A DNA stretch of 59,767 nt, counting the filler. It is 4 parts of 4 records of this genome, joined end to end, with 100 filler letters (N's around TTAATTAATTAA, not from the genome) between each part and the next. Parts side by side here need not be neighbours in the genome. Positions count along the whole stretch, not along the records: positions 1 to 12,715 come from SRR22947727_2963; 3 more parts are not named here. The stretch is one strand, 5' to 3'. Under the pieces are notes generated by a model. That model was not told the origin of the DNA. It saw only the letters and a list, made by a program, of their open reading frames with translations, and searched no databases. A program made the translations under genes and the position numbers. Positions 1-48,504 of this stretch are shown here, in pieces (the stretch's first letter is position 1; each line of letters begins with the position of its first letter).

Positions 1-147
1 GAATAAGTATATTAAAGGTGAGACTGCTAAGGTGTTTAGACTACATGAATCTAATTTTATGCCTAAGATATTAGTACCTTAATGAATTGATCCAAGCTTG
101 GTGATGCAATGTGGTCACCTTTTATTTTAACTATTAACACAAACATT

Positions 148-291
148 ATGGACGAAGATAACGATATAGAAAGAGAAGAACTCCGTTGGGAGTACAAGCA
201 GGAAATAAGAAGAGACATCAGTAGACACAGAGGACTCATTGACTTTGATATAGACTACGAAGAAGAGGAAGAAGAAGATAGTGACACATAA
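148..291 (+). CDS. Small, highly acidic phage early protein (47 aa)
   Basis: ATG at 148 after an A/T-rich leader; 21 of 47 residues are D/E; overlaps the next ORF. Confidence 0.6.
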   Translation: MDEDNDIEREELRWEYKQEIRRDISRHRGLIDFDIDYEEEEEEDSDT

Positions 292-490
292 TTACGAGGA
301 CTTTGAATCCTATTTCTTTGCTGACTCTCGACAGTTCTCTTACGAAGTAGCTGAGAAGTTTGATCTCTTTTGGCAGAACAATGAGCTTGGCTATGATAAG
401 AATGGTAAGTTGATCCGAACGGATAGACCAAGGAAGAAACCTAAGCATGAGTTTGACTTCACCAATAAGAACAAGAAAAAAAGAACATGA
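281..490 (+). CDS. Hypothetical phage early protein
   Basis: 69-aa ORF whose stop overlaps the RNAP start (ATGA at 487-490). Confidence 0.65.
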   Translation: MTHNYEDFESYFFADSRQFSYEVAEKFDLFWQNNELGYDKNGKLIRTDRPRKKPKHEFDFTNKNKKKRT

Positions 491-2865
491 GTAGTGAACA
501 CTTAACTGCTTCGATGGTTGAGCTTGGCAAGGCTCGGTACAGGAACGCTAAGAAGTTACGAACACAGAACCAGTTATCATCCGAGACTCCTGCTTATACT
601 AGACTAGCTGATCAGATGCACGAAGGTGTAGCTAATGTAATACAGAAATTCTTTGATGATTGCTCACAAGTACACGCACCTTGTCCTGTTTGGTTACCTT
701 TAGTGTGGGAATTAGAAGCAGATGAAGTAGCTCTGTTGGCAATTAAAAGATCGTTTGATTTACTGGATGGTAACGATATGACCTTTGCTTATGTGTCTTT
801 TGAACTAGCTAAGTCTATAGAGGATGAAGTACGAGTCCGTTACTTTAAAGATTATGTGGACAAGAATACTTGGAAGTTATTGCAAAGGGACAGGAAAAAT
901 GTCCGTAGTAGACAGCAGTATATATCTAAGTTCTGGGATAAAGAAAAGAATTTACATAGTAAGGGCAGGTACGAACGATTTACGCTGTGGACTAAAACAA
1001 ATAAAGCAAAGATTGGTGCTTGGTTGTTAGAGACTATCCGTATGCAAACAAACCTCTTTACTTTGAAGAGTACACTGACCAGGAGGGGATCAACAATTAA
1101 AAAGATAGCACCTAATCCACAGCTACAGGAATGGGTTAGACAATTTGATGAGAACAGTGAGTCACTCCGTCCGTTTTGGTTGGCTACAACTGAAGAACCT
1201 TTGAGGTGGGAGAGTAATTACGGAGGTGGATACATGAGTGATGACTTACCTTGCCTACCAATAATGAAGAAAGCATTTGACTTACGGAACAGAGACTTGA
1301 GTAAGTTGTATGAACCACTTAACCGACTTCAAGAAGTACCGTATCGAATAAACAAGAAGGTACACGATATAATGTTATGGGCTTGGGAAGGGGATGTCTC
1401 TATCGGAGCGATGGAAAAGAGAGACCTGTTACCTGTCCTTGAACCTGTTGAGAATTTAAAACAGACAGACCCTGAAGCATTCACAGCGTGGAAAAGAGAA
1501 GCTAAGTATGTACACGACTGGAACTTAGAGACTAGTGGTAGAAGGATGAGGTCACTACGGATTATGTATGTTGCAAAGTTATACAGTCAGATGGAGAAGT
1601 TTTATTTTCCTGTACAGGTGGACTACAGAGGTAGAGTGTATAGCGTACCATCCTTTGTCAGTCCTCAAAGCTGTGACCTTGGTAGGAGTTGCTTGGAGTT
1701 TTACCGAGGTGTACCAATTAAGTGTGAGGAAGATGCTAAGTGGTTAAAGATACACGGAGCGAATGTATGGGGGAGAAAGGGTACATTTGAGGATCGCATA
1801 GCTTGGGTGGAACAGAACACTAAAGAGATTGTAACGATAGCTGAAGACCCTAGAACCTATAAGCTATGGCAAGACGCATCTGAGCCTTGGGCTTTCCTGG
1901 CTTTTTGTTTTGAATATGCTGAGTATAAGAAGGAGGGATATGGATTTGTTACTCACCTACCTTGTAGGATGGATGCAAGTTGTAACGGTATTCAAATACT
2001 ATCGCTGTTGTTAAAGGACGAGGAGATAGGCAAGCTAACAAACTTAGTACCTGACCTACCACCACAGGATGTATATCAACACATCGCAGATCGAGTGAAC
2101 GATAGCTTACACAAACAAAAGAGTAAGAATAGTTTGGCAGGTGACTGGTTAAAGTGGGGGATAGATAGAAGATACACGAAGAGAATAGTAATGACTAAAC
2201 CTTTTGGTATGAATGGATACACTAGTACCTTTGAGTTGGAGAGTGTGTTTCTAAAAGAGGTAAAGAATGGTAGGAGTAATCCGTTTGGAAAGAGTGAGTA
2301 CTTAGAAGCTTTACTTTACCTGTCCACGATTGTTAACAAGCAAACTAATATCGTGTTAGAGAACCACATCAACTTTATGAAGTGGATCAAAGCACAGGTT
2401 CTTACTTGTCCAGATACTTTAAAGTGGAAGACACCATTCGGAATAGAGATTCAACAACACATCTACGAGACCGTACAGATTGGATTGTTTTCTGTGTTAG
2501 GAATGGAAAAGACCACACTTAACTATCGAAAGAACACAGATAAAGTTGATCCTAAAAGACAAGCTAAAGCAGTGGTTGCCAACTACATACACAGTATCGA
2601 TGCAAGTGTCGTACATTTTTTAGCTTGCAAATCTGATTACGATGTCACAACTATACATGACTGCTTTGCTACGCACAGTACACACGCACCGAAGATGCAC
2701 ACAGATTTAAGAGAGATTTACCACGAGATATTTAATCAAGACCTCACAGGAAAGTTCAAGAGTGAGTTATTGAATCAATCAGGGAACACCGAAGTGACAG
2801 ACAGCTTTGAACTTGGCACATTAGATGTGTCGGCACTAAACGACTGCACTTACATGTTCTCTTAA
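487..2865 (+). CDS. gp1: Single-subunit T7-like DNA-dependent RNA polymerase
   Basis: DYRGRVY, motif A DASCNGIQ, motif B RRYTKRIVMTKPFG, NYIHSIDA, motif C IHDCF, C-terminal YMFS. Confidence 0.97.
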   Translation: MSSEHLTASMVELGKARYRNAKKLRTQNQLSSETPAYTRLADQMHEGVANVIQKFFDDCSQVHAPCPVWLPLVWELEADEVALLAIKRSFDLLDGNDMTFAYVSFELAKSIEDEVRVRYFKDYVDKNTWKLLQRDRKNVRSRQQYISKFWDKEKNLHSKGRYERFTLWTKTNKAKIGAWLLETIRMQTNLFTLKSTLTRRGSTIKKIAPNPQLQEWVRQFDENSESLRPFWLATTEEPLRWESNYGGGYMSDDLPCLPIMKKAFDLRNRDLSKLYEPLNRLQEVPYRINKKVHDIMLWAWEGDVSIGAMEKRDLLPVLEPVENLKQTDPEAFTAWKREAKYVHDWNLETSGRRMRSLRIMYVAKLYSQMEKFYFPVQVDYRGRVYSVPSFVSPQSCDLGRSCLEFYRGVPIKCEEDAKWLKIHGANVWGRKGTFEDRIAWVEQNTKEIVTIAEDPRTYKLWQDASEPWAFLAFCFEYAEYKKEGYGFVTHLPCRMDASCNGIQILSLLLKDEEIGKLTNLVPDLPPQDVYQHIADRVNDSLHKQKSKNSLAGDWLKWGIDRRYTKRIVMTKPFGMNGYTSTFELESVFLKEVKNGRSNPFGKSEYLEALLYLSTIVNKQTNIVLENHINFMKWIKAQVLTCPDTLKWKTPFGIEIQQHIYETVQIGLFSVLGMEKTTLNYRKNTDKVDPKRQAKAVVANYIHSIDASVVHFLACKSDYDVTTIHDCFATHSTHAPKMHTDLREIYHEIFNQDLTGKFKSELLNQSGNTEVTDSFELGTLDVSALNDCTYMFS

Positions 2866-2894
2866 TTAACAAAACACATAGAAGGAGAGATAAG

Positions 2895-3533
2895 ATGGCG
2901 ATTAAAGCTAGAACAAGACACCCACAAACAGTGACACCAGTAGGTACAGCTAAGTATCCATATGTTAACACACCTAACACTAGGTTTAACGATGAAGGTG
3001 AGTACAGTTGTGATATAATAATAACAAAGGAAGAAGCAGATGCTTTGAACTTACAATTCCAACCTTTATTCGATGCTGAATATCAAGCTAAGTTAGAGGA
3101 GTTAGGAAAGAAAAAGTTAAAACTATCTGATGCACCTGTGCGTGAAGATGATGAAGGTAACTGGGTAGTCAAAGCAAAACTAAAGAATGTACTTCCTGGT
3201 ACTTATAAGAACGGTGACCCAAGAGCTGCAAAATCTATTGCTTTGTATGATTCACAAGGTAAACCTTTAAAGGATACATTGGTAAGAGGTGGATCAAAGG
3301 TTAAGTTAGCAGTGCGTCCAAGGTTTTGGTATGTCGCATCGACTGGGTTTGGAATGAGCCTTGATTTGTTAGCAGTCCAAGTCATCGAGTTAGGAGATGG
3401 TGGTCTCAGTGATAAAGCAGCTGAAAGCTTTGGGTTTACTGAAGTTGAAGGCGGCTATGTTAACGGAGGTGAATCACTCGAAAAAGCACTCGATGCCGAA
3501 GAAGAAGAAGACATCATTAAGGCAGACTTTTAG
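2895..3533 (+). CDS. gp2.5: Single-stranded DNA-binding protein (T7 gp2.5-like)
   Basis: TPVGTAKYPYVNTP, GGSKVKL, LLAVQVIEL; acidic tail ending in Phe; GAAGGAG RBS. Confidence 0.92.
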   Translation: MAIKARTRHPQTVTPVGTAKYPYVNTPNTRFNDEGEYSCDIIITKEEADALNLQFQPLFDAEYQAKLEELGKKKLKLSDAPVREDDEGNWVVKAKLKNVLPGTYKNGDPRAAKSIALYDSQGKPLKDTLVRGGSKVKLAVRPRFWYVASTGFGMSLDLLAVQVIELGDGGLSDKAAESFGFTEVEGGYVNGGESLEKALDAEEEEDIIKADF

Positions 3534-3990
3534 GTCGGGCTTTGAAGAGAGAATAGCAAACCAACTTAAAAGGTGTGGGGTCTGCTACTCTTACGAGTCG
3601 TTAGTCATTGAGTACGAGAGACTTAGTACCTATACTCCTGACTTCATCTTACCTAATGGAATCATTATTGAAACTAAAGGTAGGTGGGTCACGGAGGACA
3701 GGTCTAAACATCTGTTAATCAAACAACAACATCCTGATTTAGATATTAGGTTGTTATTTCAAAACGCATACAACAAGATTCGTAAGGGTAGCAAGACTAC
3801 CTATGCCATGTGGTGTGAAAAGAAAGGAATATTATATGCACATAAACAAATACCAAAGTCATGGCTTTCACTAGAACGCATCAGCAGTGTGCAAAGTGTG
3901 GATCGAGTGACGCTCTTGCGGTCAACGATGACGGAAGCACAAAATGTTTCAGCTGTGATTCATACAGTCGAGGCAGACAACAAACTATGA
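3493..3990 (+). CDS. gp3: Endonuclease I / Holliday junction resolvase (T7 gp3-like)
   Basis: FRSGFEE, YTPDFILPNGIIIETKGRW, HPDLDIRLLFQ, SKTTYAMWC. Start moved to ATG 3493. Confidence 0.93.
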   Translation: MPKKKKTSLRQTFRSGFEERIANQLKRCGVCYSYESLVIEYERLSTYTPDFILPNGIIIETKGRWVTEDRSKHLLIKQQHPDLDIRLLFQNAYNKIRKGSKTTYAMWCEKKGILYAHKQIPKSWLSLERISSVQSVDRVTLLRSTMTEAQNVSAVIHTVEADNKL

Positions 3991-5462
3991 CAATACCTAC
4001 AACTAATAACGACACCTCATTTATCACAGGTAAAGCACAGGAGATAGCTAGGAGGAACTTAACTAAGGAGACTTGTCAGAAGTGGGGCTATCAGATTGGT
4101 ACACACAACGGAGAACCAGTTCACATAGCTAACTACAAGAGTAGGAACGGAGCACTTGTCGCACAGAAACTACGATTCGCTAACAAAACTTTCTCAATCA
4201 AAGGAGAGCTGTATGGCTTATACGGACAGCACCTTTGGAGTAGTGGTGGAAGAAGAGTGGTAGTGTGTGAAGGTGAGATTGATGCACTATCTGTAAGCCA
4301 AGCATTCGGTAACAAGTGGGCTGTTGTATCTGTACCTAACGGAGCAGGTGGAGCAAAGAAGTATGTATCACAAGCTATCGATTGGTTGGAGTCCTTTGAG
4401 AAGGTAATCTTCTGCTTTGATAATGATGATCCAGGGAGAGATGGAGCAGCTAAATGTGCTGCACTATTGACACCAGGAAAAGCACACATTGCAGAGTTAC
4501 CTCTTAAAGATGCTAACGATATGTTAGTGGCAAAGCGTAGCGAGGAGTTGGTGACAGCTTTATGGCAAGCTAGAGAGTATAGACCTGATGGGATAGTTAG
4601 TGGTGAGGACATATGGCAAGCAGTGATAAAGGAGGACACCTCTGAATGTCAGCCCTATCCGTATGCTTCACTCAACACTATGACACATGGACTGAGGAGA
4701 GGGGAGTTGGTGACACTTTGTGCTGGATCAGGGATAGGTAAGTCCTTGTTCTGTCGTGAAGTATGTCACCATCTCCTTGGACTTGGAGAGACAGTAGGTT
4801 ATATAGCACTGGAAGAATCAGTCAGACGAACTGCACTTGGTATCATGGGTATCCATCTTAACAAACCGTTACACCTTGAGAATGATTTGAAGGAGGAGGA
4901 GTTACGCAAAGCATTCGATGAGACAATGGGCAACAAGAACTTCTATACCTATGACCACTTCGGAAGTACGGAGAGTGATAACCTATTAAGTAAGATCAAG
5001 TACCTGTGCAAAGGATTAGGATGTAAGTGGATATTCCTTGACCATCTATCTATTGTAGTTAGTGGTATCCAAGGAGATGATGAACGAAGGTTAATTGATA
5101 ACACTATGACACAACTTAGAAGCTTAGTGGAAGAGACAGGATGTGGAATGGTGTTAGTGTCTCACCTTAGAAGACCACCGAATGGTGGAGGACATGAAGA
5201 GGGTGGAGTCACTAGGTTATCAGACTTGAGAGGTAGTCATTCGATACCACAACTCAGTGATATGGTAATAGGATTGGAGAGAAATCAACAAAAAGAAAAC
5301 AATAACGAAACAAAAGTAAGAGTCTTAAAGAATAGATTCTCAGGTGAGACTGGGCTTGCTACTACCTTGTTATATGATCAAGACAGTGGCAGGTACACGG
5401 AAGATGAGAATGTATTCAAAGATAAAACAATAACAATCAACAGCGGAGCGAGTCCGTTTTAA
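3861..5462 (+). CDS. gp4: Primase/helicase (T7 gp4-like)
   Basis: CAKC..CFSC zinc domain, TOPRIM EGEIDALS and FDNDDPG, Walker A AGSGIGKS, FLDHLSI, DLRGS, LKNRFSGETG. Confidence 0.97.
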   Translation: MAFTRTHQQCAKCGSSDALAVNDDGSTKCFSCDSYSRGRQQTMTIPTTNNDTSFITGKAQEIARRNLTKETCQKWGYQIGTHNGEPVHIANYKSRNGALVAQKLRFANKTFSIKGELYGLYGQHLWSSGGRRVVVCEGEIDALSVSQAFGNKWAVVSVPNGAGGAKKYVSQAIDWLESFEKVIFCFDNDDPGRDGAAKCAALLTPGKAHIAELPLKDANDMLVAKRSEELVTALWQAREYRPDGIVSGEDIWQAVIKEDTSECQPYPYASLNTMTHGLRRGELVTLCAGSGIGKSLFCREVCHHLLGLGETVGYIALEESVRRTALGIMGIHLNKPLHLENDLKEEELRKAFDETMGNKNFYTYDHFGSTESDNLLSKIKYLCKGLGCKWIFLDHLSIVVSGIQGDDERRLIDNTMTQLRSLVEETGCGMVLVSHLRRPPNGGGHEEGGVTRLSDLRGSHSIPQLSDMVIGLERNQQKENNNETKVRVLKNRFSGETGLATTLLYDQDSGRYTEDENVFKDKTITINSGASPF

Positions 5463-5466
5463 TAAT

Positions 5467-7341
5467 ATGAAAATACTATTCTTTGATATAGAAACCAACG
5501 GCATTGAGGACTTCACTAATCTGAGTGACCTCAAAGTCTGTCATTGCTTGTCGATCTACGATCCAATAGCAGGTAAGATGATTACCTTTAGTGGTGATGG
5601 GATAAAGGAAGGAACAAGGATGTTAGCAAAAGCTGACAAGATCATCGGACATAACATCGTAGGTTTTGATCTACCTGTGTTAGCTAAGTTGTATGACTTC
5701 TATCCTCCATTAGTTCAAGTACAAGATACACTAGTAATGAGTAGGTGTATATACCCTGACCTTAGAGAGGACGACTTCAAACGAAAGGACTTTGATCCTA
5801 AGATGATTGGTAGTCACAGCTTGAAAGCTTGGGGACACAGGATGGGTAAGATGTTAAAGCTTACTTATGGAGAGAATGAGGATGCTTGGGACAGCTACAA
5901 TGATGAGATGAAGAAGTACTGTGAACGAGATGTCCTTGTTACCAAGACCTTGTACGAACACTTCCTTAGTAAAGAACCTAGTAAGAAGATGGTGGACATA
6001 GAACATTGGTTCGCTTACATCATACGCTTACAGGAAAGCAAAGGGTTTGGGTTTGATATAGCAGCAGCAGAAGTGTTAGAACAAAAGTTGATTCTGTTAA
6101 GAGCAAAGCTACAAGATAAACTACAAGCTATGTTTGAACCTACCGTTAAGAAGATGAAGACTCCGAAGGGATACTCATTAACTGTTGAACGCACGGACGG
6201 AGTCGAAGTAATCAACGCACCTACAAAAGCAAAGTTAAAAGCTATACTAAAAGAAAGAGGTATGGTACAGAACTTAGTTAACAAAGCTGAAGCACTTGAT
6301 GTAAAGGAGGAGATCATACCTTTCAATCCTGGTAGCAGGAAGCAGATCAAAGAACGCTTTGAAGAACTAGGATATGAGATACCTGTCAGTGAAGACGGTA
6401 AGACTATAAAGGTGGATGAACCTACTCTTAAAAAGATAAACCACCCAGCTGCCAAGCTTCTGCTAGAGTATCTGTTAGTCGTAAAAAGACTAGGAGCTTT
6501 GGCTGAAGGCGAGAATGGGTGGCTTAAATTAGTTAAAGATAAGAGACTACACGGACGAGTCAATACAAACGGTGCAGTCACAGGTAGATGTACACATTCC
6601 AAACCTAACTTAGCACAAGTACCTGCCACAAGAGCAGAGTACGGTGAGGAGTGTAGAAGTTTATTCATCCCTCTTAACGGTAATGTATTAGTAGGTGTTG
6701 ACGCTAGTGGGTTAGAGTTAAGAATGCTGGCACACTACCTAGCTATTTGGGATGGTGGTGAGTACGCTAGGAATATATTAGAGGGTGACATCCACACAGT
6801 TAATCAACAAGCTGCTAAGTTAGAGACGAGAGACCAAGCTAAGACATTCATCTATGGATTCTTATATGGTGCAGGTGACGCAAAGATTGGACAGATAGTG
6901 GAAGGTTCAGCAAGAGAAGGAGCAATCTTAAAGAAGAAGTTCCTGTCTAACTTACCTGCGTTAAAGATATTGAAGCTAAAGATAGAGGAGAAAGTCAGAC
7001 GATCTGCTTGTTTAACAGGACTAGATGGTAGAGTATTACCTGTCAGATCAGAACACGCTGCACTTAATATGTTACTTCAATCAGCAGGTGCTGTGGTTAT
7101 GAAGGTAGCACTGATAAAGTTACACAACAAACTACAGCAGTTAGGATGGCAACACGGTAGGGAATATTCTTTTGTTGGTAATATCCACGATGAGTTCCAA
7201 GCTGAAGTTAAACCTGACCTAGCTGAGACATACGGAGAGTTAGCAATCCAAGCAATCCAAGCAGCAGGTAAAGACTTAAAGTTGAACTGTCCTATGGATG
7301 GTGAGTATAAGATAGGCAAGTCATGGGCAGAGACACACTAG
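5467..7341 (+). CDS. gp5: DNA polymerase family A with 3'-5' exonuclease (T7 gp5-like)
   Basis: FDIETNG, GHNIVGFD, DASGLELR, AKTFIYGFLYGAG, IHDEFQ, C-terminal SWAETH. Confidence 0.97.
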   Translation: MKILFFDIETNGIEDFTNLSDLKVCHCLSIYDPIAGKMITFSGDGIKEGTRMLAKADKIIGHNIVGFDLPVLAKLYDFYPPLVQVQDTLVMSRCIYPDLREDDFKRKDFDPKMIGSHSLKAWGHRMGKMLKLTYGENEDAWDSYNDEMKKYCERDVLVTKTLYEHFLSKEPSKKMVDIEHWFAYIIRLQESKGFGFDIAAAEVLEQKLILLRAKLQDKLQAMFEPTVKKMKTPKGYSLTVERTDGVEVINAPTKAKLKAILKERGMVQNLVNKAEALDVKEEIIPFNPGSRKQIKERFEELGYEIPVSEDGKTIKVDEPTLKKINHPAAKLLLEYLLVVKRLGALAEGENGWLKLVKDKRLHGRVNTNGAVTGRCTHSKPNLAQVPATRAEYGEECRSLFIPLNGNVLVGVDASGLELRMLAHYLAIWDGGEYARNILEGDIHTVNQQAAKLETRDQAKTFIYGFLYGAGDAKIGQIVEGSAREGAILKKKFLSNLPALKILKLKIEEKVRRSACLTGLDGRVLPVRSEHAALNMLLQSAGAVVMKVALIKLHNKLQQLGWQHGREYSFVGNIHDEFQAEVKPDLAETYGELAIQAIQAAGKDLKLNCPMDGEYKIGKSWAETH

Positions 7342-7805
7342 AGCTTGAACACGATTACTACTTGAAGGTTGCCGAATTGTACGATACAGTTGACCTAACA
7401 TTTCCTATGCCCTCATCAAACACACAACGAATAGGAGCGATAGCAGAGTCTAGGTTTATAACAGAGTGTTTAGAAAGAAACTTTGAACCGCACCTACCTA
7501 CCACACCCATGCCTTGGGACTTTATTGTTACTTGTCCAGCAGGTACTTTAAAAGTTCAGATCAAAGCTTCAAGCAGGAAGTCATCTGTTAATACATACTG
7601 TATAAATAGTGGGACAGGATGTAAGAGTAAGGATACTATGTGTGAAACAATAGATGTTGTCGGGTGTTATATTATACCTGAGCAAACTTGGTGGATGATA
7701 CCGAGAAAAGAAATAAAAGGAGTAACACTAAAGTTAAACATCCTACCAGATAGTAAATCAAAACATAAAAAATACCAAGAGAACTGGAGCATATTCTATG
7801 AGTAA
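7323..7805 (+). CDS. PD-(D/E)XK endonuclease, putative free-standing homing nuclease
   Basis: GAIAE..WDFIV..KVQIK pattern. The start may be ATG 7407. Confidence 0.7.
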   Translation: MGRDTLELEHDYYLKVAELYDTVDLTFPMPSSNTQRIGAIAESRFITECLERNFEPHLPTTPMPWDFIVTCPAGTLKVQIKASSRKSSVNTYCINSGTGCKSKDTMCETIDVVGCYIIPEQTWWMIPRKEIKGVTLKLNILPDSKSKHKKYQENWSIFYE

Positions 7806-8718
7806 AACAACCATACTAATTGACGCAGATGTATTAGCATTTGAATCGTCAATCATAGCACAAGAAAATATACAATGGGAAGAAGAACTGTGGACTGTAC
7901 ACGCAGACATGACAGTAGCAAAGGAACGAGTCATTGGAAGGATAGAACAATTCAAAGACTTACTCAAAGCCGATGAAGTAGTGTTAGCGTTAAGTGACCG
8001 AGCAAACTTCAGAAGGAAACTATTCCCTGAGTACAAGTCTAACAGAAGGAAGTCAGTGTTACCTGTCATCTTAAAACCTATGAAGGAATGGATGATCAAT
8101 GAACTAGACGCACAACTGTGGGCTAACATAGAAGCAGATGATATATTAAGTATCCTTGCTACTGAGTATCCTAACAGACAAGACAAGCGAATCATAGTTA
8201 GTATAGACAAGGACTTCAAGAGTGTACCAGGAATCTTCTATGATTATAACAGACAAGAATACCACCAACCAACAGAAGAGGAAGCAGATAACTTTCATTT
8301 GATACAGACATTGATGGGAGATACTACAGATGGATTCAGTGGAGTCAAAGGAGTCGGTCCTGTAACAGCACAGAGATGGTTAGATAAACATGGATACACT
8401 TGGGAGTCTGTTGTTGCTTTGTACGAGAAGAATAGACAGACAGAACAGGATGCTTTAACAAATGCTTGGATGGCAAGACTACTAAGAAAAGAACAATACA
8501 ATAAAAAACAAAAACAAATAACAAAATTATGGACACCGAAGAACTACCAAACCACGGACAAAAGGAGAATTACATCACAGGTGCACAGCGTGACAGGGCT
8601 ACTGGACGAGGACGATTCAGCCTTATTCCTCCAATCGCCCTTCGATCCCTTGCCAAACGATTTGAAGACGGAGGAAGACTCTACGGAGACAACAACTGGC
8701 ACAACGGATTCCCATTAA
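7798..8718 (+). CDS. gp6: 5'-3' exonuclease (T7 gp6-like)
   Basis: LIDADVL, YKSNR, EADD, SIDKDF, GDTTDGFSGVKGVG. Confidence 0.93.
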   Translation: MSKTTILIDADVLAFESSIIAQENIQWEEELWTVHADMTVAKERVIGRIEQFKDLLKADEVVLALSDRANFRRKLFPEYKSNRRKSVLPVILKPMKEWMINELDAQLWANIEADDILSILATEYPNRQDKRIIVSIDKDFKSVPGIFYDYNRQEYHQPTEEEADNFHLIQTLMGDTTDGFSGVKGVGPVTAQRWLDKHGYTWESVVALYEKNRQTEQDALTNAWMARLLRKEQYNKKQKQITKLWTPKNYQTTDKRRITSQVHSVTGLLDEDDSALFLQSPFDPLPNDLKTEEDSTETTTGTTDSH

Positions 8719-8894
8719 GTAGGTTAATAGATAGTATGAATAGGCATCTGTTAGCGTTGAACGAAGGAGATGACAAGGAAGATCACGCAGGTGCTATACT
8801 GTGGAATGCCAGTGCTTTCCTGTGGACCGAGGATCAAATTAATAAAGGTAACTTACCTCAAGAACTAGATGACAGGAGTTATATAAACAAATGA
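8529..8894 (+). CDS. dATP/dGTP diphosphohydrolase-domain protein (DUF5664-like)
   Basis: TGAQRD..GRFSLIP..GGRLYGDNNWHNG..SMNRHL..EDHAGAILWNA. Confidence 0.8.
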   Translation: MDTEELPNHGQKENYITGAQRDRATGRGRFSLIPPIALRSLAKRFEDGGRLYGDNNWHNGFPLSRLIDSMNRHLLALNEGDDKEDHAGAILWNASAFLWTEDQINKGNLPQELDDRSYINK

Positions 8895-9091
8895 ATAACG
8901 AAGAAGAACTACTACCAGCTATAAGTGAAACTTTAGTTAAAAGATTAGAGAAACTATTTCCTGATAAATGTCCTGACTTGACGAACACAGAAAAAGATGT
9001 TTGGTTTAAAAGTGGACAAGTGTCTGTAATTAGATTTCTAAGACAAACTTATAACGAACAGCTTCAACAAAACATTTTAACAAAAGACTAA
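8891..9091 (+). CDS. Small hypothetical podophage protein
   Basis: 66-aa ORF coupled by ATGA to the upstream gene; LEKLFPDKCP..GQVSVIRFL. Confidence 0.75.
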   Translation: MNNEEELLPAISETLVKRLEKLFPDKCPDLTNTEKDVWFKSGQVSVIRFLRQTYNEQLQQNILTKD

Positions 9092-9093
9092 CT

Positions 9094-9297
9094 ATGTGTA
9101 TGTCAGCACCAAATATTCCTCCTCCTCCACCACCTCCAGCACCACCGCCACCACCACCTCCTGTTGCTGAAGCACCTAAGACTGTCAGACAAACACAGCC
9201 TAAGAAGAGAAGAAGAGGAGCACAAGCTCAGTTAGCACGAACTGCTAGACCTACACTAGGTGGAATGTCAGGTGGTACTGGTGTTAATATGTCTTAA
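9094..9297 (+). CDS. Small proline-rich virion protein (gp6.7/gp7.3-like position)
   Basis: MC start, poly-Pro tract, basic patch and GGTGVN end resemble the small genes that precede the portal in T7-like phages. Confidence 0.65.
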   Translation: MCMSAPNIPPPPPPPAPPPPPPPVAEAPKTVRQTQPKKRRRGAQAQLARTARPTLGGMSGGTGVNMS

Positions 9298-9330
9298 CAA
9301 ATTTTTATTAACTAATAACTATATATTATC

Positions 9331-9648
9331 ATGCTTCGCACACTCTCAAAAAAGACTTTGCTATCATCTGTTACTTCAACAGGGGCTGGCAGTTCATTCT
9401 CAGTAGAGCGTTCTAAGGGTTGGACCTTTGTAATCGCTTCTTCATCAGTAACTTCAGGAGGTACAGTAGACATAGAAGCCTACATCGGTGGTGCTTGGTA
9501 TGTTGTTCACTCTGAAGTAGTAACAGCAGACGGAGCAGTAATGGTCAGAGATGATCACGGACACTACGAAAAGATAAGAGCTAATCTATCTGCTAGAACA
9601 GATGGTACTTACAGTGTATTCGCTACAGGTACTACAGACTCTCTTTAA
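9331..9648 (+). CDS. Hypothetical beta-rich structural protein
   Basis: 105-aa S/T/G/V-rich ORF that opens a tightly packed cassette. Confidence 0.7.
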   Translation: MLRTLSKKTLLSSVTSTGAGSSFSVERSKGWTFVIASSSVTSGGTVDIEAYIGGAWYVVHSEVVTADGAVMVRDDHGHYEKIRANLSARTDGTYSVFATGTTDSL

Positions 9649-9652
9649 TTAG

Positions 9653-9850
9653 ATGTCTTTGATTTATCCATATGCTACTCAGGAGAAACCGAATGGCATT
9701 GTCATTGCTCCTAGTAACTTCATCCGTCCTGAGTTTGGGGAGACCTATGCTTTTGATGAACGAGATGAGATGTTACTTACTGAGTTACTACAAGCGTTAT
9801 TGACTGAGGATAATGACCGCATCACAATAGACAACGAAATAGATAATTAA
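9653..9850 (+). CDS. Small hypothetical fibre-associated protein
   Basis: 65 aa with repeated LLTE motifs, directly before the fibre-like gene. Confidence 0.65.
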   Translation: MSLIYPYATQEKPNGIVIAPSNFIRPEFGETYAFDERDEMLLTELLQALLTEDNDRITIDNEIDN

Positions 9851-9855
9851 ATAAA

Positions 9856-10524
9856 ATGGCTAACAAGAAGATAACAGAACTTTCAAACCTGGCTACTCCT
9901 AATGGTGCTGATGTATTGGCTATTGTGGATGACATTGCAGGTACAGCTACCACTAAAAAGGTAACAGCAACTAACCTAATGACCCTTGCACCTGTTCAAT
10001 CAGTAGCAGGAAGGACAGGTACAGTAACACTTAGCAACACAGACATTAGTGGATTAGGCACAGCGGCTACTCAGGATGTAGGTACAAGTGCTAATAATGT
10101 AGTACAGTTAAATGGATCAGGTGATTTACCTGCTGTTGACGGTAGTAACTTAACAGGTATTACAGTATCAGTCAGTGCAGGTGAATTAACAGATGGTAAC
10201 TTTGATGGAACTGCAATCTTAGGCTTTGACGCTAGTATAAATGATCAGACAGGAACTGCATACACTTTATTAGCTGGAGATAATGGTAAGGTAGTAGTCC
10301 TTGATAATGGGTCAGCAGTTACAGTAACAGTTCCAAGCGGATTAGGTGCTGGATTTAATTGTAGCTTCGTTCAGAAAGGTGCTGGTCAAGTTAGCTTTAG
10401 TGCTTCAGGTACTACCATTAACAACAGACAGTCTCACACGAAGATCAACGCTCAGTACGGAGTAGCAAGTATAGTAGCTTATGCTGACAATGTTTTTGTT
10501 TTAGCTGGAGACACAGCTTCCTAA
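9856..10524 (+). CDS. Tail or head fibre-like protein
   Basis: MANKKITEL N-terminus, VQSVAGRTGTVTL and LGTAAT..VGTSANNVVQL fibre segments, beta-rich C-terminal domain. Confidence 0.7.
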   Translation: MANKKITELSNLATPNGADVLAIVDDIAGTATTKKVTATNLMTLAPVQSVAGRTGTVTLSNTDISGLGTAATQDVGTSANNVVQLNGSGDLPAVDGSNLTGITVSVSAGELTDGNFDGTAILGFDASINDQTGTAYTLLAGDNGKVVVLDNGSAVTVTVPSGLGAGFNCSFVQKGAGQVSFSASGTTINNRQSHTKINAQYGVASIVAYADNVFVLAGDTAS

Positions 10525-10526
10525 GT

Positions 10527-10742
10527 ATGTTCGTTCTTCCTACATTCAGTCTTGGGGTAGTAGGTAGTCCCACTTCAGTTTTTGACAGTAGTTTAACATT
10601 CCCAACCATTCAGGTATTTAACACTGAAGCAGACTTCATTTCCAACACAGACGCACCTAACTACACCATCGTCCATGCTAAAGACACCAATAGTTTGTAT
10701 GTTTGGGTAGGTTCTTTTTGGCGAGTTTTCCAATCAAATTAA
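10527..10742 (+). CDS. Small hypothetical structural protein
   Basis: 71-aa ORF; AKDTNSLYVWVG resembles ETDTNKIIVWDG in the next protein. Confidence 0.65.
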   Translation: MFVLPTFSLGVVGSPTSVFDSSLTFPTIQVFNTEADFISNTDAPNYTIVHAKDTNSLYVWVGSFWRVFQSN

Positions 10743-10747
10743 TAAAT

Positions 10748-11605
10748 ATGAGTACACTTAATACTACCACTTCCTCAAGTCGTCCTAGTTTAGGTTCATC
10801 CGATATAGGTAGATCATACTACGAGACTGACACTAACAAAATAATAGTTTGGGACGGTGTAGGTTTTGACGAATACAATGCAGATTATATAGCTAATCCA
10901 GCTTTCGTTAATGGATTTGCTCTTAATTTTGACGGTACTAACGACAAGGTCAGTATACCGCACAACTCAGCCTTAAACGGTACAAACGGTTTTACTATTT
11001 CTGCTTGGGTAAATCACAACGGTTCACTCAGCGGTTACCCACAAATTGTCAGCAAGCGAACTGGTAATACTGCGTATCAGTTAAACATTAAAAACACAGG
11101 TGAATTATATTTTGGTGTAGATGGAACATCTTTCGTTACAGGAAGTACTTCATTATCGTCCAATACTTGGTATCATGTTGCGGTTACTTGGACTAACGGA
11201 ACAGGGGCTGTTGCTTTTTATGTAAATGGATCATCGGACGGTACAGGGACATCAAAATCTTCGATAACTAGCAATACAGGAGCGTTTGAAATCGGGAAAA
11301 ATCCTGCCTTTACTAATTGGTTTGGAGGGGCGATGGATGAAGTGGTGTTTTATGATTATGTATTGACACCGACAGAGGTAAATAGCCTCGTTCAAACCAT
11401 TAGTAGTACTTTAAAACCTAACGATGCAAATACTTTAAGCCCTGTAGGTTGGTGGAGAATGGGAGATAGTACTGGAGATACTTCATCGACTATAGTAAAT
11501 ACCGCAACAGGAGCAAATACTGCTGGTTCATCCATAAACGGTTCAATATCAGGGGCTACATCTAGAGATTTAAGCACTATTCCTGACTCAATTTATAATC
11601 CGTAA
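10748..11605 (+). CDS. LamG/concanavalin A-like lectin-domain virion protein
   Basis: ALNFDGTND, FTISAWVN, NTWYHVAVTW, FYVNG, FGGAMDEV, VGWWRMGD. Start at ATG 10748. Confidence 0.85.
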   Translation: MSTLNTTTSSSRPSLGSSDIGRSYYETDTNKIIVWDGVGFDEYNADYIANPAFVNGFALNFDGTNDKVSIPHNSALNGTNGFTISAWVNHNGSLSGYPQIVSKRTGNTAYQLNIKNTGELYFGVDGTSFVTGSTSLSSNTWYHVAVTWTNGTGAVAFYVNGSSDGTGTSKSSITSNTGAFEIGKNPAFTNWFGGAMDEVVFYDYVLTPTEVNSLVQTISSTLKPNDANTLSPVGWWRMGDSTGDTSSTIVNTATGANTAGSSINGSISGATSRDLSTIPDSIYNP

Positions 11606-11607
11606 CC

Positions 11608-11835
11608 ATGAGAACATATATAATAGTCAGTTCCACTGAAGCTAGTAACTTTGATTTCAGTCAGTTAGTAGACAACGATGAATCGTCCAGCCGTAAGAGT
11701 TTAGACGGTAGTAAGATACTAGCACGATTTGAAGGTGACACTCCTAGCTTTTTAATAGGTGAACAGCAATACACTCAAGAAGAGATACTCCCGATAACAA
11801 ACGGTACTGAGTGGTCTAACCCTGACGGTGTATAA
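11608..11835 (+). CDS. Small hypothetical protein after the LamG gene (possible fibre chaperone)
   Basis: 75-aa ORF that exactly fills the gap between LamG and portal. Confidence 0.7.
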   Translation: MRTYIIVSSTEASNFDFSQLVDNDESSSRKSLDGSKILARFEGDTPSFLIGEQQYTQEEILPITNGTEWSNPDGV

Positions 11836-11836
11836 G

Positions 11837-12715
11837 ATGCAAGAAACAGCACAAGGGCTATACCACTCCTTAGAGAACCAACGGTGGTCTTTCTTAGATA
11901 GAGGTCGTACCTCATCTGAGTTGACTATTCCTTACATAATGCCGCCTGATGGTCATAGTCACGCTACTAAGTACTACACACCATATCAAGGAGTAGGAGC
12001 TAGAGGAGTTAACAACTTAGCATCTAAATTACTATTAGCTTTGTTACCACCTAACGCTCCATTCTTCCGTCTTGTTATTGACAGATATGAATTAGATAAA
12101 GCAAAGCAGGAGTTAGGACCAGAGGGAGGAGAGCAGTTACGATCTGACTTAGAGAAAGCACTAGCAGATGTAGAACGAAGTGTATCTCAAGAAGTAGAAG
12201 TTGAAGCATTTCGAGTAGGAGTGTTTGAAGCGTTAAAGAATTTATTAGTGACAGGAAATACTTTGTTATACTTACCTGATGACGGTGGGATGAGAGTATT
12301 CAGACTTGATAGGTACTGTGTAAAGAGAGACCCAATGGGCAATGTAACACACATAGCTATCAAAGAAACTGTTGCTCCAATGATGTTACCTGAGTCTGTA
12401 AGAGAGGAAGTATATCGTCAAGAGAAAGAAAATAGTTGTGACTTGTACACCTCTGTAGTTAGAGAAGGTAATGAATATGTAGTACAACAAGATGTTAAAG
12501 GAATTGTTATTGAAGAGTCAAAGGGTAGATATCCTATCGAGAAGACTCCATTCCTACCTCTTCGTTATACAAGAATAGATGGTGAAGACTACGGACGAGG
12601 ATTTGTTGAGGAGTACATCGGTGATCTTAAATCTTTAGAGTCGTTAACAAAAGCGATAGTCGAAGGTAGTGCAGCAGCAGCTAAGGTATTGTTCATGGTT
12701 AATCCTAACGGTACA
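11837..12715 (+). CDS. gp8: Portal / head-tail connector (T7 gp8-like), 3'-truncated by the contig end
   Basis: TPYQGVGARGVNNLASKLLLALLPPNAPFFRL, GEDYGRGFVEEYIGDL. Confidence 0.96.
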
Positions 12716-12815
12716 NNNNNNNNNNNNNNNNNNNNNNNNNNNNNNNNNNNNNNNNNNNNTTAATTAATTAANNNNNNNNNNNNNNNNNNNNNNNNNNNNN
12801 NNNNNNNNNNNNNNN
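12716..12815. other. Artificial contig linker
   Basis: N44-TTAATTAATTAA-N44 with stops in all six frames; composition changes across it. Confidence 0.98.
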
Positions 12816-13568: not shown

Positions 13569-15014
13569 ATGGAAATGATAAATCAACTTAAAAATAATAA
13601 GACAATCTTAAGATGGTATTTTCTTTTATTAGGCTTAACAATGCTATTCGGACGCTCTTTTACGGGATTAACTTTATTTAATTATCGATTAGGAGAAATT
13701 ATTGTAATATTATCTTTTTTTACATCAATCTTCGTATTTACCTCAGCTTTCGATCGGATAATTGATAAAAATATACTGATATTAAATAGGATTTTAATTT
13801 TATCTTTTTATATTTATATCTTAATTTCTGATGGTTCCTTAACTAATCCTTATACGTACAAATCAAGTTCATATATTTGGACTTTTGCTTTTGTCTATCT
13901 GGGATCTTTTGCCAGTTACCTAGTTAAAAAAACAAAATTTGATATGAGGTACTTGTTAACACTTCTACCAATAACCTACATCTTAAGTTCAGTGTTTTAT
14001 CCTGAAGTCATTCAGAAATTTTTTTTGAAATATTCTGATGTCTTTGATTTTCTTAAAGCATCAGACTTATTACTAGTTTTTGTTGTCACGAATTACTTTT
14101 ATTTTGTAAGTAGTAAACATAAAAGTAATTCTTTTATATATTTAATTATTTCTGCATCAATATTTTTTCCATATATGGCATTTAAAAGTAAAGGAGCAAT
14201 AGTGCCTGGAGTAGTATTTATGATATTGATCCTATACCAGTACAGAAAATTTATCTTTAGCAAGACTTGGTTTGCTATTTTTATATTGTTTGTCGGAGTT
14301 ATTTTTTTTGGTTTTTCAACTATTAGAACTTTTGGGAGTATTCAAAATGTTGATTACGGTATGTTTTTTAGTGAAAGAGAAGAGAATACACCAATGCATG
14401 AAAGATTTACTAATTTTCAAAGCATTATAAAAACACAGCCAGAAAGATACGAAGAAGCTGTTGTTCCTGAAAGATACGAACAACAGGAAGCAAGCGAAGT
14501 AGAAGAGGAGATATATATTAATATTGTTCCTCCAGAGAAAGAATATACTAATGTCAACCAGTTTTGGATATTTACACTTGCAGATGGAAGGCTTTACTCC
14601 AATGAGACTAACGTAGATTATAGATTACAAATTTGGCAAGATGTTTTGATTGACTTAAAGCTTCAGGGACAACTTTTTACAGGGTATGCCTTTAATGAAA
14701 TAATACCAGCAATGACACCGGCTGAAAGAAGAGGTTGGGACGGCAGTAATGAAAATGTCCATAATTATTTAATTAATATACTTGCTAGAGGAGGAGTAAT
14801 TCATCTTGCTATTTTCATAATGATTAATTTCTATATAGTCCGTAATTGGTATTCAAGGAACAAGAACTTTTTAATTTTAACATATATGACACCTGTTATT
14901 TTGACTGCATTATTTGACGTGACAATGGAAAGTGCTAGATATCCTTTAATTTATTATTCATTTTTAGGGTTCTTCATGATGCATGAAACTCAAAATAAAG
15001 AAGAGATAATTTAA
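13569..15014 (+). CDS. O-antigen ligase/polymerase-like membrane protein
   Basis: Multiple TM segments, RLQIW, HNYLINILARGG. Confidence 0.75.
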   Translation: MEMINQLKNNKTILRWYFLLLGLTMLFGRSFTGLTLFNYRLGEIIVILSFFTSIFVFTSAFDRIIDKNILILNRILILSFYIYILISDGSLTNPYTYKSSSYIWTFAFVYLGSFASYLVKKTKFDMRYLLTLLPITYILSSVFYPEVIQKFFLKYSDVFDFLKASDLLLVFVVTNYFYFVSSKHKSNSFIYLIISASIFFPYMAFKSKGAIVPGVVFMILILYQYRKFIFSKTWFAIFILFVGVIFFGFSTIRTFGSIQNVDYGMFFSEREENTPMHERFTNFQSIIKTQPERYEEAVVPERYEQQEASEVEEEIYINIVPPEKEYTNVNQFWIFTLADGRLYSNETNVDYRLQIWQDVLIDLKLQGQLFTGYAFNEIIPAMTPAERRGWDGSNENVHNYLINILARGGVIHLAIFIMINFYIVRNWYSRNKNFLILTYMTPVILTALFDVTMESARYPLIYYSFLGFFMMHETQNKEEII

Positions 15015-15044
15015 AACAAAAGTTATGATTTTATTAAGGAAAAT

Positions 15045-16076
15045 ATGAAAAAAGCATTAATAACAGGGATAACCGGTCAAGATGGGTTTTATTTAACAAA
15101 GCTACTTCTTGAAAAGGGATATGAGGTTAGTGGAACTATAAGAAGATCCTCTTCAATTAATACTGACAGGATAGATCCTCTAATCTCACAATTTTCTGAA
15201 GATGGTCAGTTAAAACTTTATTACTCAGACTTAATTGACTCTTCATCTTTAAATAATTTAGTAAACACTATTGGACCGGATGAAATATATAACCTTGCCG
15301 CTCAATCACACGTACAAGTGTCTTTTAAGAATCCAGTTTACACATCTCAGACTGGTACCTTGGGAACGCTATCTTTATTAGAGGCCGTGAAAAATTCAAA
15401 TAAAAAAATAAGATTCTATCAGGCATCATCATCTGAGATGTATGGTGGTATTAACAATGAAAAGTTAGACGAAAGTTCATTATTTGAGCCAAAAAGTCCG
15501 TATGCAGCAGCAAAAGTATTCTCACATAATGTAACAAAAATCTATAGAGATTCATATGATTTATTTTGTGCAAATGGAATTTTATTTAATCATGAATCTC
15601 CGCACAGAGGGGAAACGTTTGTTACTAGAAAAATAACTAAAGCTGTTGGTCGAATAGCAGCAGGAATGCAAAAATATGTCACACTTGGAAACCTTGAAGC
15701 ACATAGAGATTGGGGATTTGCAGGTGACTATGTCGAAGGTATGTGGAAGATGTTACAGGTAGACCATCCTGATGATTGGGTTTTGGCTACAGGTGAGACC
15801 CATACAGTAAAAGAATTTGCAAAGATGGCATTTGAATATGTTGGTCTTGATTCTGAAAGATATATAAAAATTTCAGAAAAGTATTTCAGACCAAACGAAG
15901 TAGAACATTTACTTGGTGACTATTCAAAGGCAGCAAAAGAATTGAACTGGAAGCCTAAAACTTCTTTTAAGGAACTGGTTCAGATGATGGTTGAACATGA
16001 TGTTGAGGAAGCAAGTAGAGAAAAAGTATTAATTGAAAACAATCTTCTTAAGCCAACCTGGGAAAACCCAATCTAA
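15045..16076 (+). CDS. gmd: GDP-mannose 4,6-dehydratase
   Basis: ALITGITGQDG, YNLAAQSHV, FYQASSSEMYG, NHESPHRGETFVTRKIT, RDWG. Confidence 0.97.
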   Translation: MKKALITGITGQDGFYLTKLLLEKGYEVSGTIRRSSSINTDRIDPLISQFSEDGQLKLYYSDLIDSSSLNNLVNTIGPDEIYNLAAQSHVQVSFKNPVYTSQTGTLGTLSLLEAVKNSNKKIRFYQASSSEMYGGINNEKLDESSLFEPKSPYAAAKVFSHNVTKIYRDSYDLFCANGILFNHESPHRGETFVTRKITKAVGRIAAGMQKYVTLGNLEAHRDWGFAGDYVEGMWKMLQVDHPDDWVLATGETHTVKEFAKMAFEYVGLDSERYIKISEKYFRPNEVEHLLGDYSKAAKELNWKPKTSFKELVQMMVEHDVEEASREKVLIENNLLKPTWENPI

Positions 16077-38954: not shown

Positions 38955-39054
38955 NNNNNNNNNNNNNNNNNNNNNNNNNNNNNNNNNNNNNNNNNNNNTT
39001 AATTAATTAANNNNNNNNNNNNNNNNNNNNNNNNNNNNNNNNNNNNNNNNNNNN
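38955..39054. other. Artificial contig linker
   Basis: N44-TTAATTAATTAA-N44. Confidence 0.98.
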
Positions 39055-48404: not shown

Positions 48405-48504
48405 NNNNNNNNNNNNNNNNNNNNNNNNNNNNNNNNNNNNNNNNNNNNTTAATTAATTAANNNNNNNNNNNNNNNNNNNNNNNNNNNNNNNNNNNNNNNN
48501 NNNN
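48405..48504. other. Artificial contig linker
   Basis: N44-TTAATTAATTAA-N44. Confidence 0.98.

Follow-up and report, generated by a model that had tools for sequence, protein, structure and literature searches.

Can a phage RNA polymerase work without the tyrosine by which enzymes of the T7 type tell ribose from deoxyribose, and what becomes of its choice of substrate if phenylalanine stands there instead? In T7 RNA polymerase this tyrosine, Y639, is the textbook ribo/deoxy discriminator, and its engineered change to phenylalanine (Y639F) underlies the standard reagents for 2'-modified RNA. The question is raised by a gene for a single-subunit DNA-dependent RNA polymerase (RNAP) at positions 487-2865 of a DNA stretch of 59,767 nucleotides, the whole of which is referred to below as the window; the gene lies in its first part, contig SRR22947727_2963 (positions 1-12715). 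An earlier note, made from the letters alone, had proposed that the gene encodes a T7-type RNAP with a natural Phe, F573, at the Y639 position, and that the wild enzyme has either relaxed sugar selectivity or some compensating mechanism. We report here how these proposals fared. Feature coordinates are collected in Table 1.

The family assignment and the position of the Phe are both clear. Two Pfam domains were found above their gathering scores: PF00940 (RNA_pol, 9e-69, 232.8 bits for a cutoff of 22) and PF14700 (RPOL_N, 8.8e-8, 32.3 bits for a cutoff of 30.1). A phmmer search against PDB chains matched T7 RNAP with an E-value of 5e-70. In motif B, codons 561 to 574 (AGA AGA TAC ACG AAG AGA ATA GTA ATG ACT AAA CCT TTT GGT) translate as R-R-Y-T-K-R-I-V-M-T-K-P-F-G, with K565 encoded at 2179-2181. 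The phmmer alignment is ungapped here ('...tkrivmtkpfgmngy' against T7 '...tkrsvmtlaygskef'), and MAFFT placed F573 and T7 Y639 in one column of 266 sequences (T7 gene 1 from NC_001604). The motif B reading of the earlier note, with its TTT codon and ungapped match to T7, was therefore exact by translation, phmmer and MAFFT, and its identification of the enzyme held on Pfam, phmmer and alignment alike. The other catalytic motifs, which it had described as intact, are indeed all present: DYRGR as D379-Y380-R381-G382-R383, the motif A aspartate as D496, the H784 equivalent as H702, and IHD as I723-H724-D725 (T7 I810-H811-D812). All tested features of the RNAP family were thus found except the gate Tyr, which is a near-universal residue of the family and not a criterion deciding membership. 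Identity as a family A DNA polymerase was considered and rejected: residue 501 is Gly and not a bulky Glu, the domain is PF00940 and not PF00476, and the contig encodes a separate PF00476 polymerase at 5467-7341.

Phenylalanine at this site is shared by the closest relatives of the enzyme. Among the database homologues (the best 150 of 7147 representative matches), Phe was found in 11 of 11 members of one clade, consisting of the query, its nine closest listed proteins (52-98% identity) and one fragment. Six peptide patterns, all chosen away from the site, retrieved 27 viral contigs (80-99% identity); four fall short of the site, and the 23 that cover it, a retrieval independent of the site itself, all encode Phe, 16 of them as TTT and 7 as TTC. 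A wider retrieval yielded Phe in 72 of 72 clade contigs (64 TTT, 8 TTC) and Tyr, encoded by TAC, in three distant contigs (34-36% identity); one of its two patterns contained K-P-F, a bias towards Phe, and this set serves only for codon diversity and depth. The earlier note had held that Phe in several relatives, especially with TTC codons, would favour a genuine substitution, and this is what the 11 proteins and the 23 contigs gave. It had also called for read support at 2204, which was obtained in part, through Logan contigs of four public runs and not raw reads. The contig of run X2 over 1882-2207 differs from the window at 2067 alone, and hence reads TTT at 2203-2205; in the contigs of runs X1 and X4, which also span this codon, none of the displayed differences falls on it, though each covering contig has one difference that is not displayed. 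Taken together, these sequences indicate that the TTT codon is not a sequencing error.

The gene also has the marks of one that is in use. No stop codon interrupts any of nine full-length copies, and the pairwise ratio of nonsynonymous to synonymous substitution (dN/dS) between the window's gene and eight full-length relatives is 0.06-0.11, for dS values of 0.15 to 1.39; by this measure, the RNAP gene is under purifying selection. Residues invariant in the clade include D379, R381, R383, K431, D496, Q503, Y530, R561, K565, M569, H702, D705, H724, D725 and F791, which correspond to T7 D421, R423, R425, K472, D537, Q544, Y571, R627, K631, M635, H784, D787, H811, D812 and F882, respectively. Four of them (D496, D725, R561 and K565, that is, T7 D537, D812, R627 and K631) are invariant across the clade and the family. 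Family A DNA polymerases carry a steric-gate Glu at the position of T7 G542 (passage of PMC11617373); the equivalent residue is Gly in nine of ten clade members, and there is therefore no steric gate of the DNA-polymerase kind. An AlphaFold 2 (AF2) model built on a 121-sequence alignment (predicted local distance difference test, pLDDT, 91.9; predicted template modelling score, pTM, 0.88) was matched by Foldseek to the T7 elongation complexes 1msw, 1h38 and 1s76 (TM 0.85-0.86, E-value about 1e-42). In this model, helical segments at 561-569 and 571-573 are followed by a loop at 574-576 and a helix at 577-593, which puts F573 at the C-terminus of the O-helix; an earlier AF2 run on a 9-sequence alignment (pLDDT 51, and below 50 in the active-site region) was discarded. 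From selection, catalytic residues and gene order (see below), the RNAP is predicted to be the working transcriptase of its phage.

The distribution of the gate residue was then placed in a phylogenetic context. For the census, 362 database proteins were aligned with the query and T7, which gives 364 sequences, 353 of them outside the clade. Among these 353, the gate residue is Tyr in 349, Phe in 3 (P0030, P0144, P0361) and Asn in 1 (P0266), in keeping with the statement of the earlier note that Tyr is the norm. In this alignment the gate Tyr is almost as invariant as the catalytic aspartates. The Asn-bearing P0266 (..IPNGVT..) stands for 40 member sequences; P0361, a hypothetical protein, comes from a Paracoccus denitrificans contig. 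A FastTree phylogeny was computed on 264 sequences, two of fewer than 650 amino acids having been dropped; P0361 was added later and is absent from the tree. The Phe clade is monophyletic (support 1.0), and its sister group consists of six Tyr sequences (P0010, P0011, P0017 and P0122-P0124; support for the union 1.0). P0030 is the next to join, weakly (0.40), and P0144 falls elsewhere. Because the sister group and the outgroups carry Tyr, Phe is derived from a Tyr ancestor, and no reversion from Phe to Tyr is seen within the clade. On this tree and census, there have been a few independent losses of the gate Tyr. Phe in the P0030 lineage was confirmed by an independent 36.7-kb viral contig (L094, TTT); no independent viral contig was found for the P0144 lineage.

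Two residues accompany the Phe of the clade. At the position of T7 S641, Met is present in 11 of 11 clade members and in 0 of 353 sequences outside; at that of T7 K642, Asn is present in 11 of 11 and in 2 of 353, respectively. The segment F-G-M-N is constant in the clade while its flanks vary (T or C at 570; K, R, Q and others at 566). The earlier note had looked for compensation on the other side of the gate, in the K-P that replaces L-A of T7. This suggestion did not survive: Tyr too is preceded by K/R-P, both throughout the sister group (six of six) and in further Tyr homologues, P0010 and P0014-P0016 among them, and Pro before the gate residue is the family majority (304 of 353). Some clade-invariant sites are conserved to at least 80% as another residue elsewhere, namely Y380, V391, S465, A497, N617, S731 and C787. 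Y380, A497, N617 and C787 were rejected as partners of the Phe, being at least partly common to the Tyr-bearing sister clade; the tabulation of that clade took in these residues and left out V391, S465 and S731. Tyr lineages stay Tyr, and the clade stays Phe, at distances where synonymous sites are saturated, which argues for epistatic entrenchment with M575 and N576 and against simple neutrality. A pocket co-adapted in this manner could hold the gate open, or it could close the gate again in some other way.

How the enzyme might select its substrates can be approached through T7 RNAP and its mutants. Bacterial cells hold a roughly ten-fold or larger excess of ribonucleoside triphosphates (rNTPs) over deoxyribonucleoside triphosphates (dNTPs). 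According to passages of PMC4223216 and PMC11617373, the hydroxyl of Tyr639 discriminates ribose from deoxyribose at pre-insertion, via an Mg- or water-mediated contact with the 2'-OH, and T7 Y639F keeps wild-type rNTP activity and gains dNTP incorporation. The corresponding mutant of Syn5 RNAP, Y564F, discriminates less against 2'-fluoro (2'-F) dNTPs (excerpt of PMC4538805), and the S641A change in T7 markedly enhances dNTP use by Y639F (excerpt of PMC8155940). In E. coli, T7 Y639F gave almost no editing dependent on single-stranded DNA (3.39e-7; excerpt of PMC11775612), which implies that such an enzyme stays overwhelmingly an RNA maker in cells.

We propose the following history. Tyr would have been replaced by Phe once in this lineage, and Phe then fixed with Met and Asn two and three residues downstream, in a gene predicted to encode a functional middle- and late-gene transcriptase of an uncultured aquatic T7-like phage. 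Loss of the Tyr hydroxyl would weaken the pre-insertion check of the 2'-OH, as it does in T7 Y639F and Syn5 Y564F. Four things would then remain to favour rNTPs: the retained His702 (H784), Gly501 in place of a steric gate, the remodelled G-M-N loop, and the surplus of rNTPs over dNTPs in the cell. The enzyme would still make RNA in the cell, but it would use dNTPs and 2'-modified NTPs more easily than its Tyr-bearing relatives do. By analogy with the engineered enzymes, we consider a functional RNAP with a remodelled sugar-selection site and relaxed 2'-OH discrimination to be the probable state of affairs, with moderate confidence; the discrimination may have been restored in part. That the F-G-M-N clade forms a natural class of RNAPs with an inherently open sugar gate, which selection keeps open, is a bolder proposal which we advance only tentatively.

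Several points weigh against relaxed discrimination in a working transcriptase. That selectivity is relaxed is no more than an extrapolation, made from two engineered enzymes of about 23-30% identity. A constant Phe with uniquely coupled Met and Asn suggests a co-adapted pocket, in which discrimination could equally be restored otherwise. Moreover, in P0030, P0144 and P0361 the Phe is not accompanied by Met and Asn. As for transcription itself, no convincing phage promoter repeats were found in the phage contig (12.8 kb) or in a complete 39.4-kb relative, the search giving weak A-rich words only (AACCAATAAA, 4-5 copies, mostly near gene starts). The one RNA library, metatranscriptome run X14, contains partial contigs of the RNAP gene, none of them over 2087-2566, and these do not demonstrate its transcription.

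The alternative that survives best is that the site is compensated: the enzyme would discriminate against dNTPs as well as Tyr RNAPs do, through the Met575/Asn576 loop or other changes, and Phe would be a neutral-to-beneficial structural variant. The near-exclusive coupling of M575 and N576 to F573 is what this would predict, as are the strict maintenance of Phe, without drift, and the integrity of H702 and G501. The residue at T7 position 641 has a known influence on sugar selection, and intrinsic 2' discrimination varies among Tyr enzymes (excerpt of PMC4538805), from which it follows that residue 639 is not the sole determinant. However, the side chains of Met and Asn, two and three residues on, are no obvious substitute for a phenolic hydroxyl; the sole experimental datum at 641, S641A, goes in the direction of more dNTP use; and the three other natural Phe lineages do without Met and Asn. 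We regard full compensation as unlikely on balance, while taking it as the most serious competitor of relaxed discrimination.

A further alternative is that the relaxed gate is put to use in a new activity, such as the synthesis of mixed ribo/deoxy transcripts or primers, the use of a non-canonical nucleotide pool, or coping with a host defence based on nucleotides. F-G-M-N is fixed and entrenched across deep divergence, as such a role would have it. The hydrophobic residue at +2 is also reminiscent of family A DNA polymerases, which read YGMS in E. coli and Taq and YGIS in the PolA of genome G001; this resemblance is a lead only, for V, L or I occupies the T7 641 position in 33 of the 353 RNAPs outside the clade, a set that is mostly Tyr-bearing. 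The phage does carry a gene like the N-domain of a dATP/dGTP diphosphohydrolase, but similar genes occur in many unrelated phages. The phage also has its own primase-helicase and DNA polymerase, Gly is kept at the steric-gate position, and no feature of the genome points to modified nucleotides. A new activity of this kind therefore seems improbable. Finally, the idea that TTT is a sequencing or assembly error for TAT, or the gene an inactive relic, draws on the single base that separates the two codons and on the patchwork nature of the window, and is effectively refuted already by Phe in 23 of 23 and 72 of 72 independent contigs with two codons, by TTT in a public contig, by the low dN/dS and stop-free copies, and by the retention of every catalytic residue.

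The genomic setting agrees with a T7-like phage. The window consists of four unrelated contigs placed end to end, with linkers (N44-TTAATTAATTAA-N44) at 12716-12815, 38955-39054 and 48405-48504, and with GC contents of 40.5, 28.0, 34.4 and 49.9%. Only the contig at 1-12715 is of phage origin; on the other three the genes are cellular (Wzy-like protein, TonB receptor, MFS transporter, glycosyltransferase, sulfatase), and the assembly appears to be mixed. Inference of a host from the adjoining contigs was rejected, since these are joined by linkers and differ in GC content. The phage contig has the canonical T7-like gene order, with RNAP, SSB, endonuclease I, primase-helicase, DNA polymerase and exonuclease followed by virion genes, and its Pfam matches comprise SSB_T7, endonuclease I, the T7 primase-helicase, DNA_pol_A, 5'-3' exonuclease and head-tail connector. 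It shows the layout of the Autographiviridae: its own RNAP lies upstream of a T7-like replication module, the genes are co-directional, and the nearest named record is classed in that family. In a complete 39.4-kb relative, 37 of 49 open reading frames (ORFs) of at least 70 amino acids are on the same strand as the RNAP gene, which they tile end to end. The nucleotide match of the contig to viral contigs is 80-99%, and in three relatives the alignment runs up to 12716. A total of 19 listed public runs, belonging to 11 studies, contain near-identical sequence; those with strong matches are labelled seawater, estuary or freshwater metagenomes.

Table 1. Position of the RNAP gene, its key residues and neighbouring genes in the window
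Feature	Positions	Strand	Evidence or remark
Phage contig, T7-like podovirus genome fragment	1..12715	+	GC 40.5%; starts upstream of RNAP gene, ends in portal gene truncated by contig end
Single-subunit DNA-dependent RNAP gene, 792 amino acids	487..2865	+	PF00940, PF14700; T7 RNAP chain match
Motif A D496-A-S-C-N-G501 (T7 D537...G542)	1972..1989	+	Catalytic Asp in 10/10 of clade; Gly in 9/10, one Ala
Motif B / O-helix segment R561-G574 (= T7 R627-G640)	2167..2208	+	Codons 561-574; phmmer, MAFFT alignment
F573, codon TTT, at T7 Y639 (Tyr sensing the ribose 2'-OH)	2203..2205	+	Alignment; Phe in 11/11 clade proteins
M575-N576 at T7 S641-K642	2209..2214	+	Clade-specific partners of Phe
H702 (= T7 H784), second 2'-OH contact	2590..2592	+	His in 10/10 of clade, 6/6 of sister group, 247/247 others
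H724-D725 (= T7 H811-D812), motif C catalytic Asp	2656..2661	+	Alignment
T7-type single-stranded DNA-binding protein gene	2895..3533	+	PF21265, 2.2e-8
T7-type primase-helicase gene	3861..5462	+	DnaB_C, Helic-prim_T7_N and Toprim domains
Family A DNA polymerase gene	5467..7341	+	PF00476, 1.6e-46; motif B ...YGFLYGAG
Small DUF5664 / dATP-dGTP diphosphohydrolase N-domain gene, 121 amino acids	8529..8894	+	PF18909, 5.7e-19; phrog_801, 5.3e-18

Other features of the phage contig deserve mention. Homologues of the DUF5664 protein, annotated as DUF5664 or hypothetical, were found in 482 phage records, mostly of actinobacterial phages and many in genera not associated with single-subunit RNAPs; the notion that this gene is an adaptation linked to the Phe gate or to dNTP pools was rejected as unsupported, the gene being present in hundreds of unrelated phages. 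At 8891-8894, 11 of the 11 relatives spanning the point have about 240 extra bases that are missing from the window; in one of them (L001, positions 14938-15186) these correspond to an ORF of 82 amino acids between the DUF5664-like gene and the next small gene. Inserts of variable size, from about 0.2 to 1.5 kb, separate the primase-helicase and DNA polymerase genes (5462-5467) in relatives such as L018, L025 and L020, and may be mobile small genes such as those for homing endonucleases. A small ORF at 9096-9299 encodes a long stretch of prolines (PPPPPPPAPPPPPPP) and then a basic tail, and is conserved in L001. At 10703-11605, between the replication genes and the portal gene, lies a gene for a protein of 300 amino acids with a Laminin_G_3 / concanavalin-like lectin fold (2.2e-30), which is likely a virion or adhesion protein; this placement is unusual for a T7-like layout.

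In the full-text literature no report was found of a natural Phe at the Y639 site of a phage RNAP; supplements, patents and subscription journals lay outside this search, and an earlier notice is possible. By its sequence, the enzyme is a natural variant of a well-known polymerase at its best-known specificity residue, with a coupled Met/Asn signature that is newly noted here. An abundant clade of aquatic phages in which Phe is the wild type constitutes a natural experiment on the need for sugar selectivity in vivo. Its members, at 52-98% identity, offer diverged and presumably well-folded natural scaffolds for the synthesis of modified RNA, and the combination of F573 with M575 and N576 poses a concrete question of epistasis. 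If the gate is open, these wild enzymes would readily polymerise dNTPs and 2'-F or 2'-O-methyl NTPs, and strict checking of the 2'-OH by the O-helix Tyr would be dispensable for a phage transcriptase in vivo.

Comparison with known systems starts with close relatives. No close cultured phage was present in the collection searched, where all RNAP matches were below 60% identity and megablast gave no match; Pelagibacter phage HTVC109P and Vibrio phage 1.204.O have Tyr at the gate. The Tyr-bearing sister clade shares with the Phe clade the unusual DYRGR, A or C at T7 G538, N or Q at T7 W682, and K/R-P before the gate; it differs by the gate Tyr itself, by A or Q at +2, and at +3, where none of its listed residues is Asn. 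Among named phages, the nearest is Ayaqvirus S45C18 (MedDCM-OCT-S45-C18, AP013544), an uncultured marine member of the Autographiviridae. It has the same gene order and a DNA polymerase that is 52% identical, whereas its RNAP is only 32% identical and has Tyr (..YSYGLT..). That the RNAP has diverged so much further than the DNA polymerase suggests fast RNAP evolution, or replacement of the gene, in the lineage of the phage described here.

Among characterised enzymes, the RNAP of cyanophage Syn5 also comes from a marine T7-like phage. It illustrates that an RNAP may by nature discriminate little at the 2' position, and that a Tyr-to-Phe change lowers this discrimination further (excerpt of PMC4538805); wild Syn5 RNAP has Tyr564, however, and its Phe is man-made, whereas Phe is the wild type here. 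On the analogy of active-site residues, the closest functional analogues are the engineered T7 mutants Y639F and Y639F/S641A, which have the same fold, the same catalytic residues and Phe in the O-helix, with position 641 altered in the double mutant as it is in the natural clade. The enzyme described here differs from them in that its Phe is natural and fixed in a clade, in its identity to T7 RNAP of about 23% over the structural alignment, and in having Met rather than Ala at 641, followed by Asn at 642.

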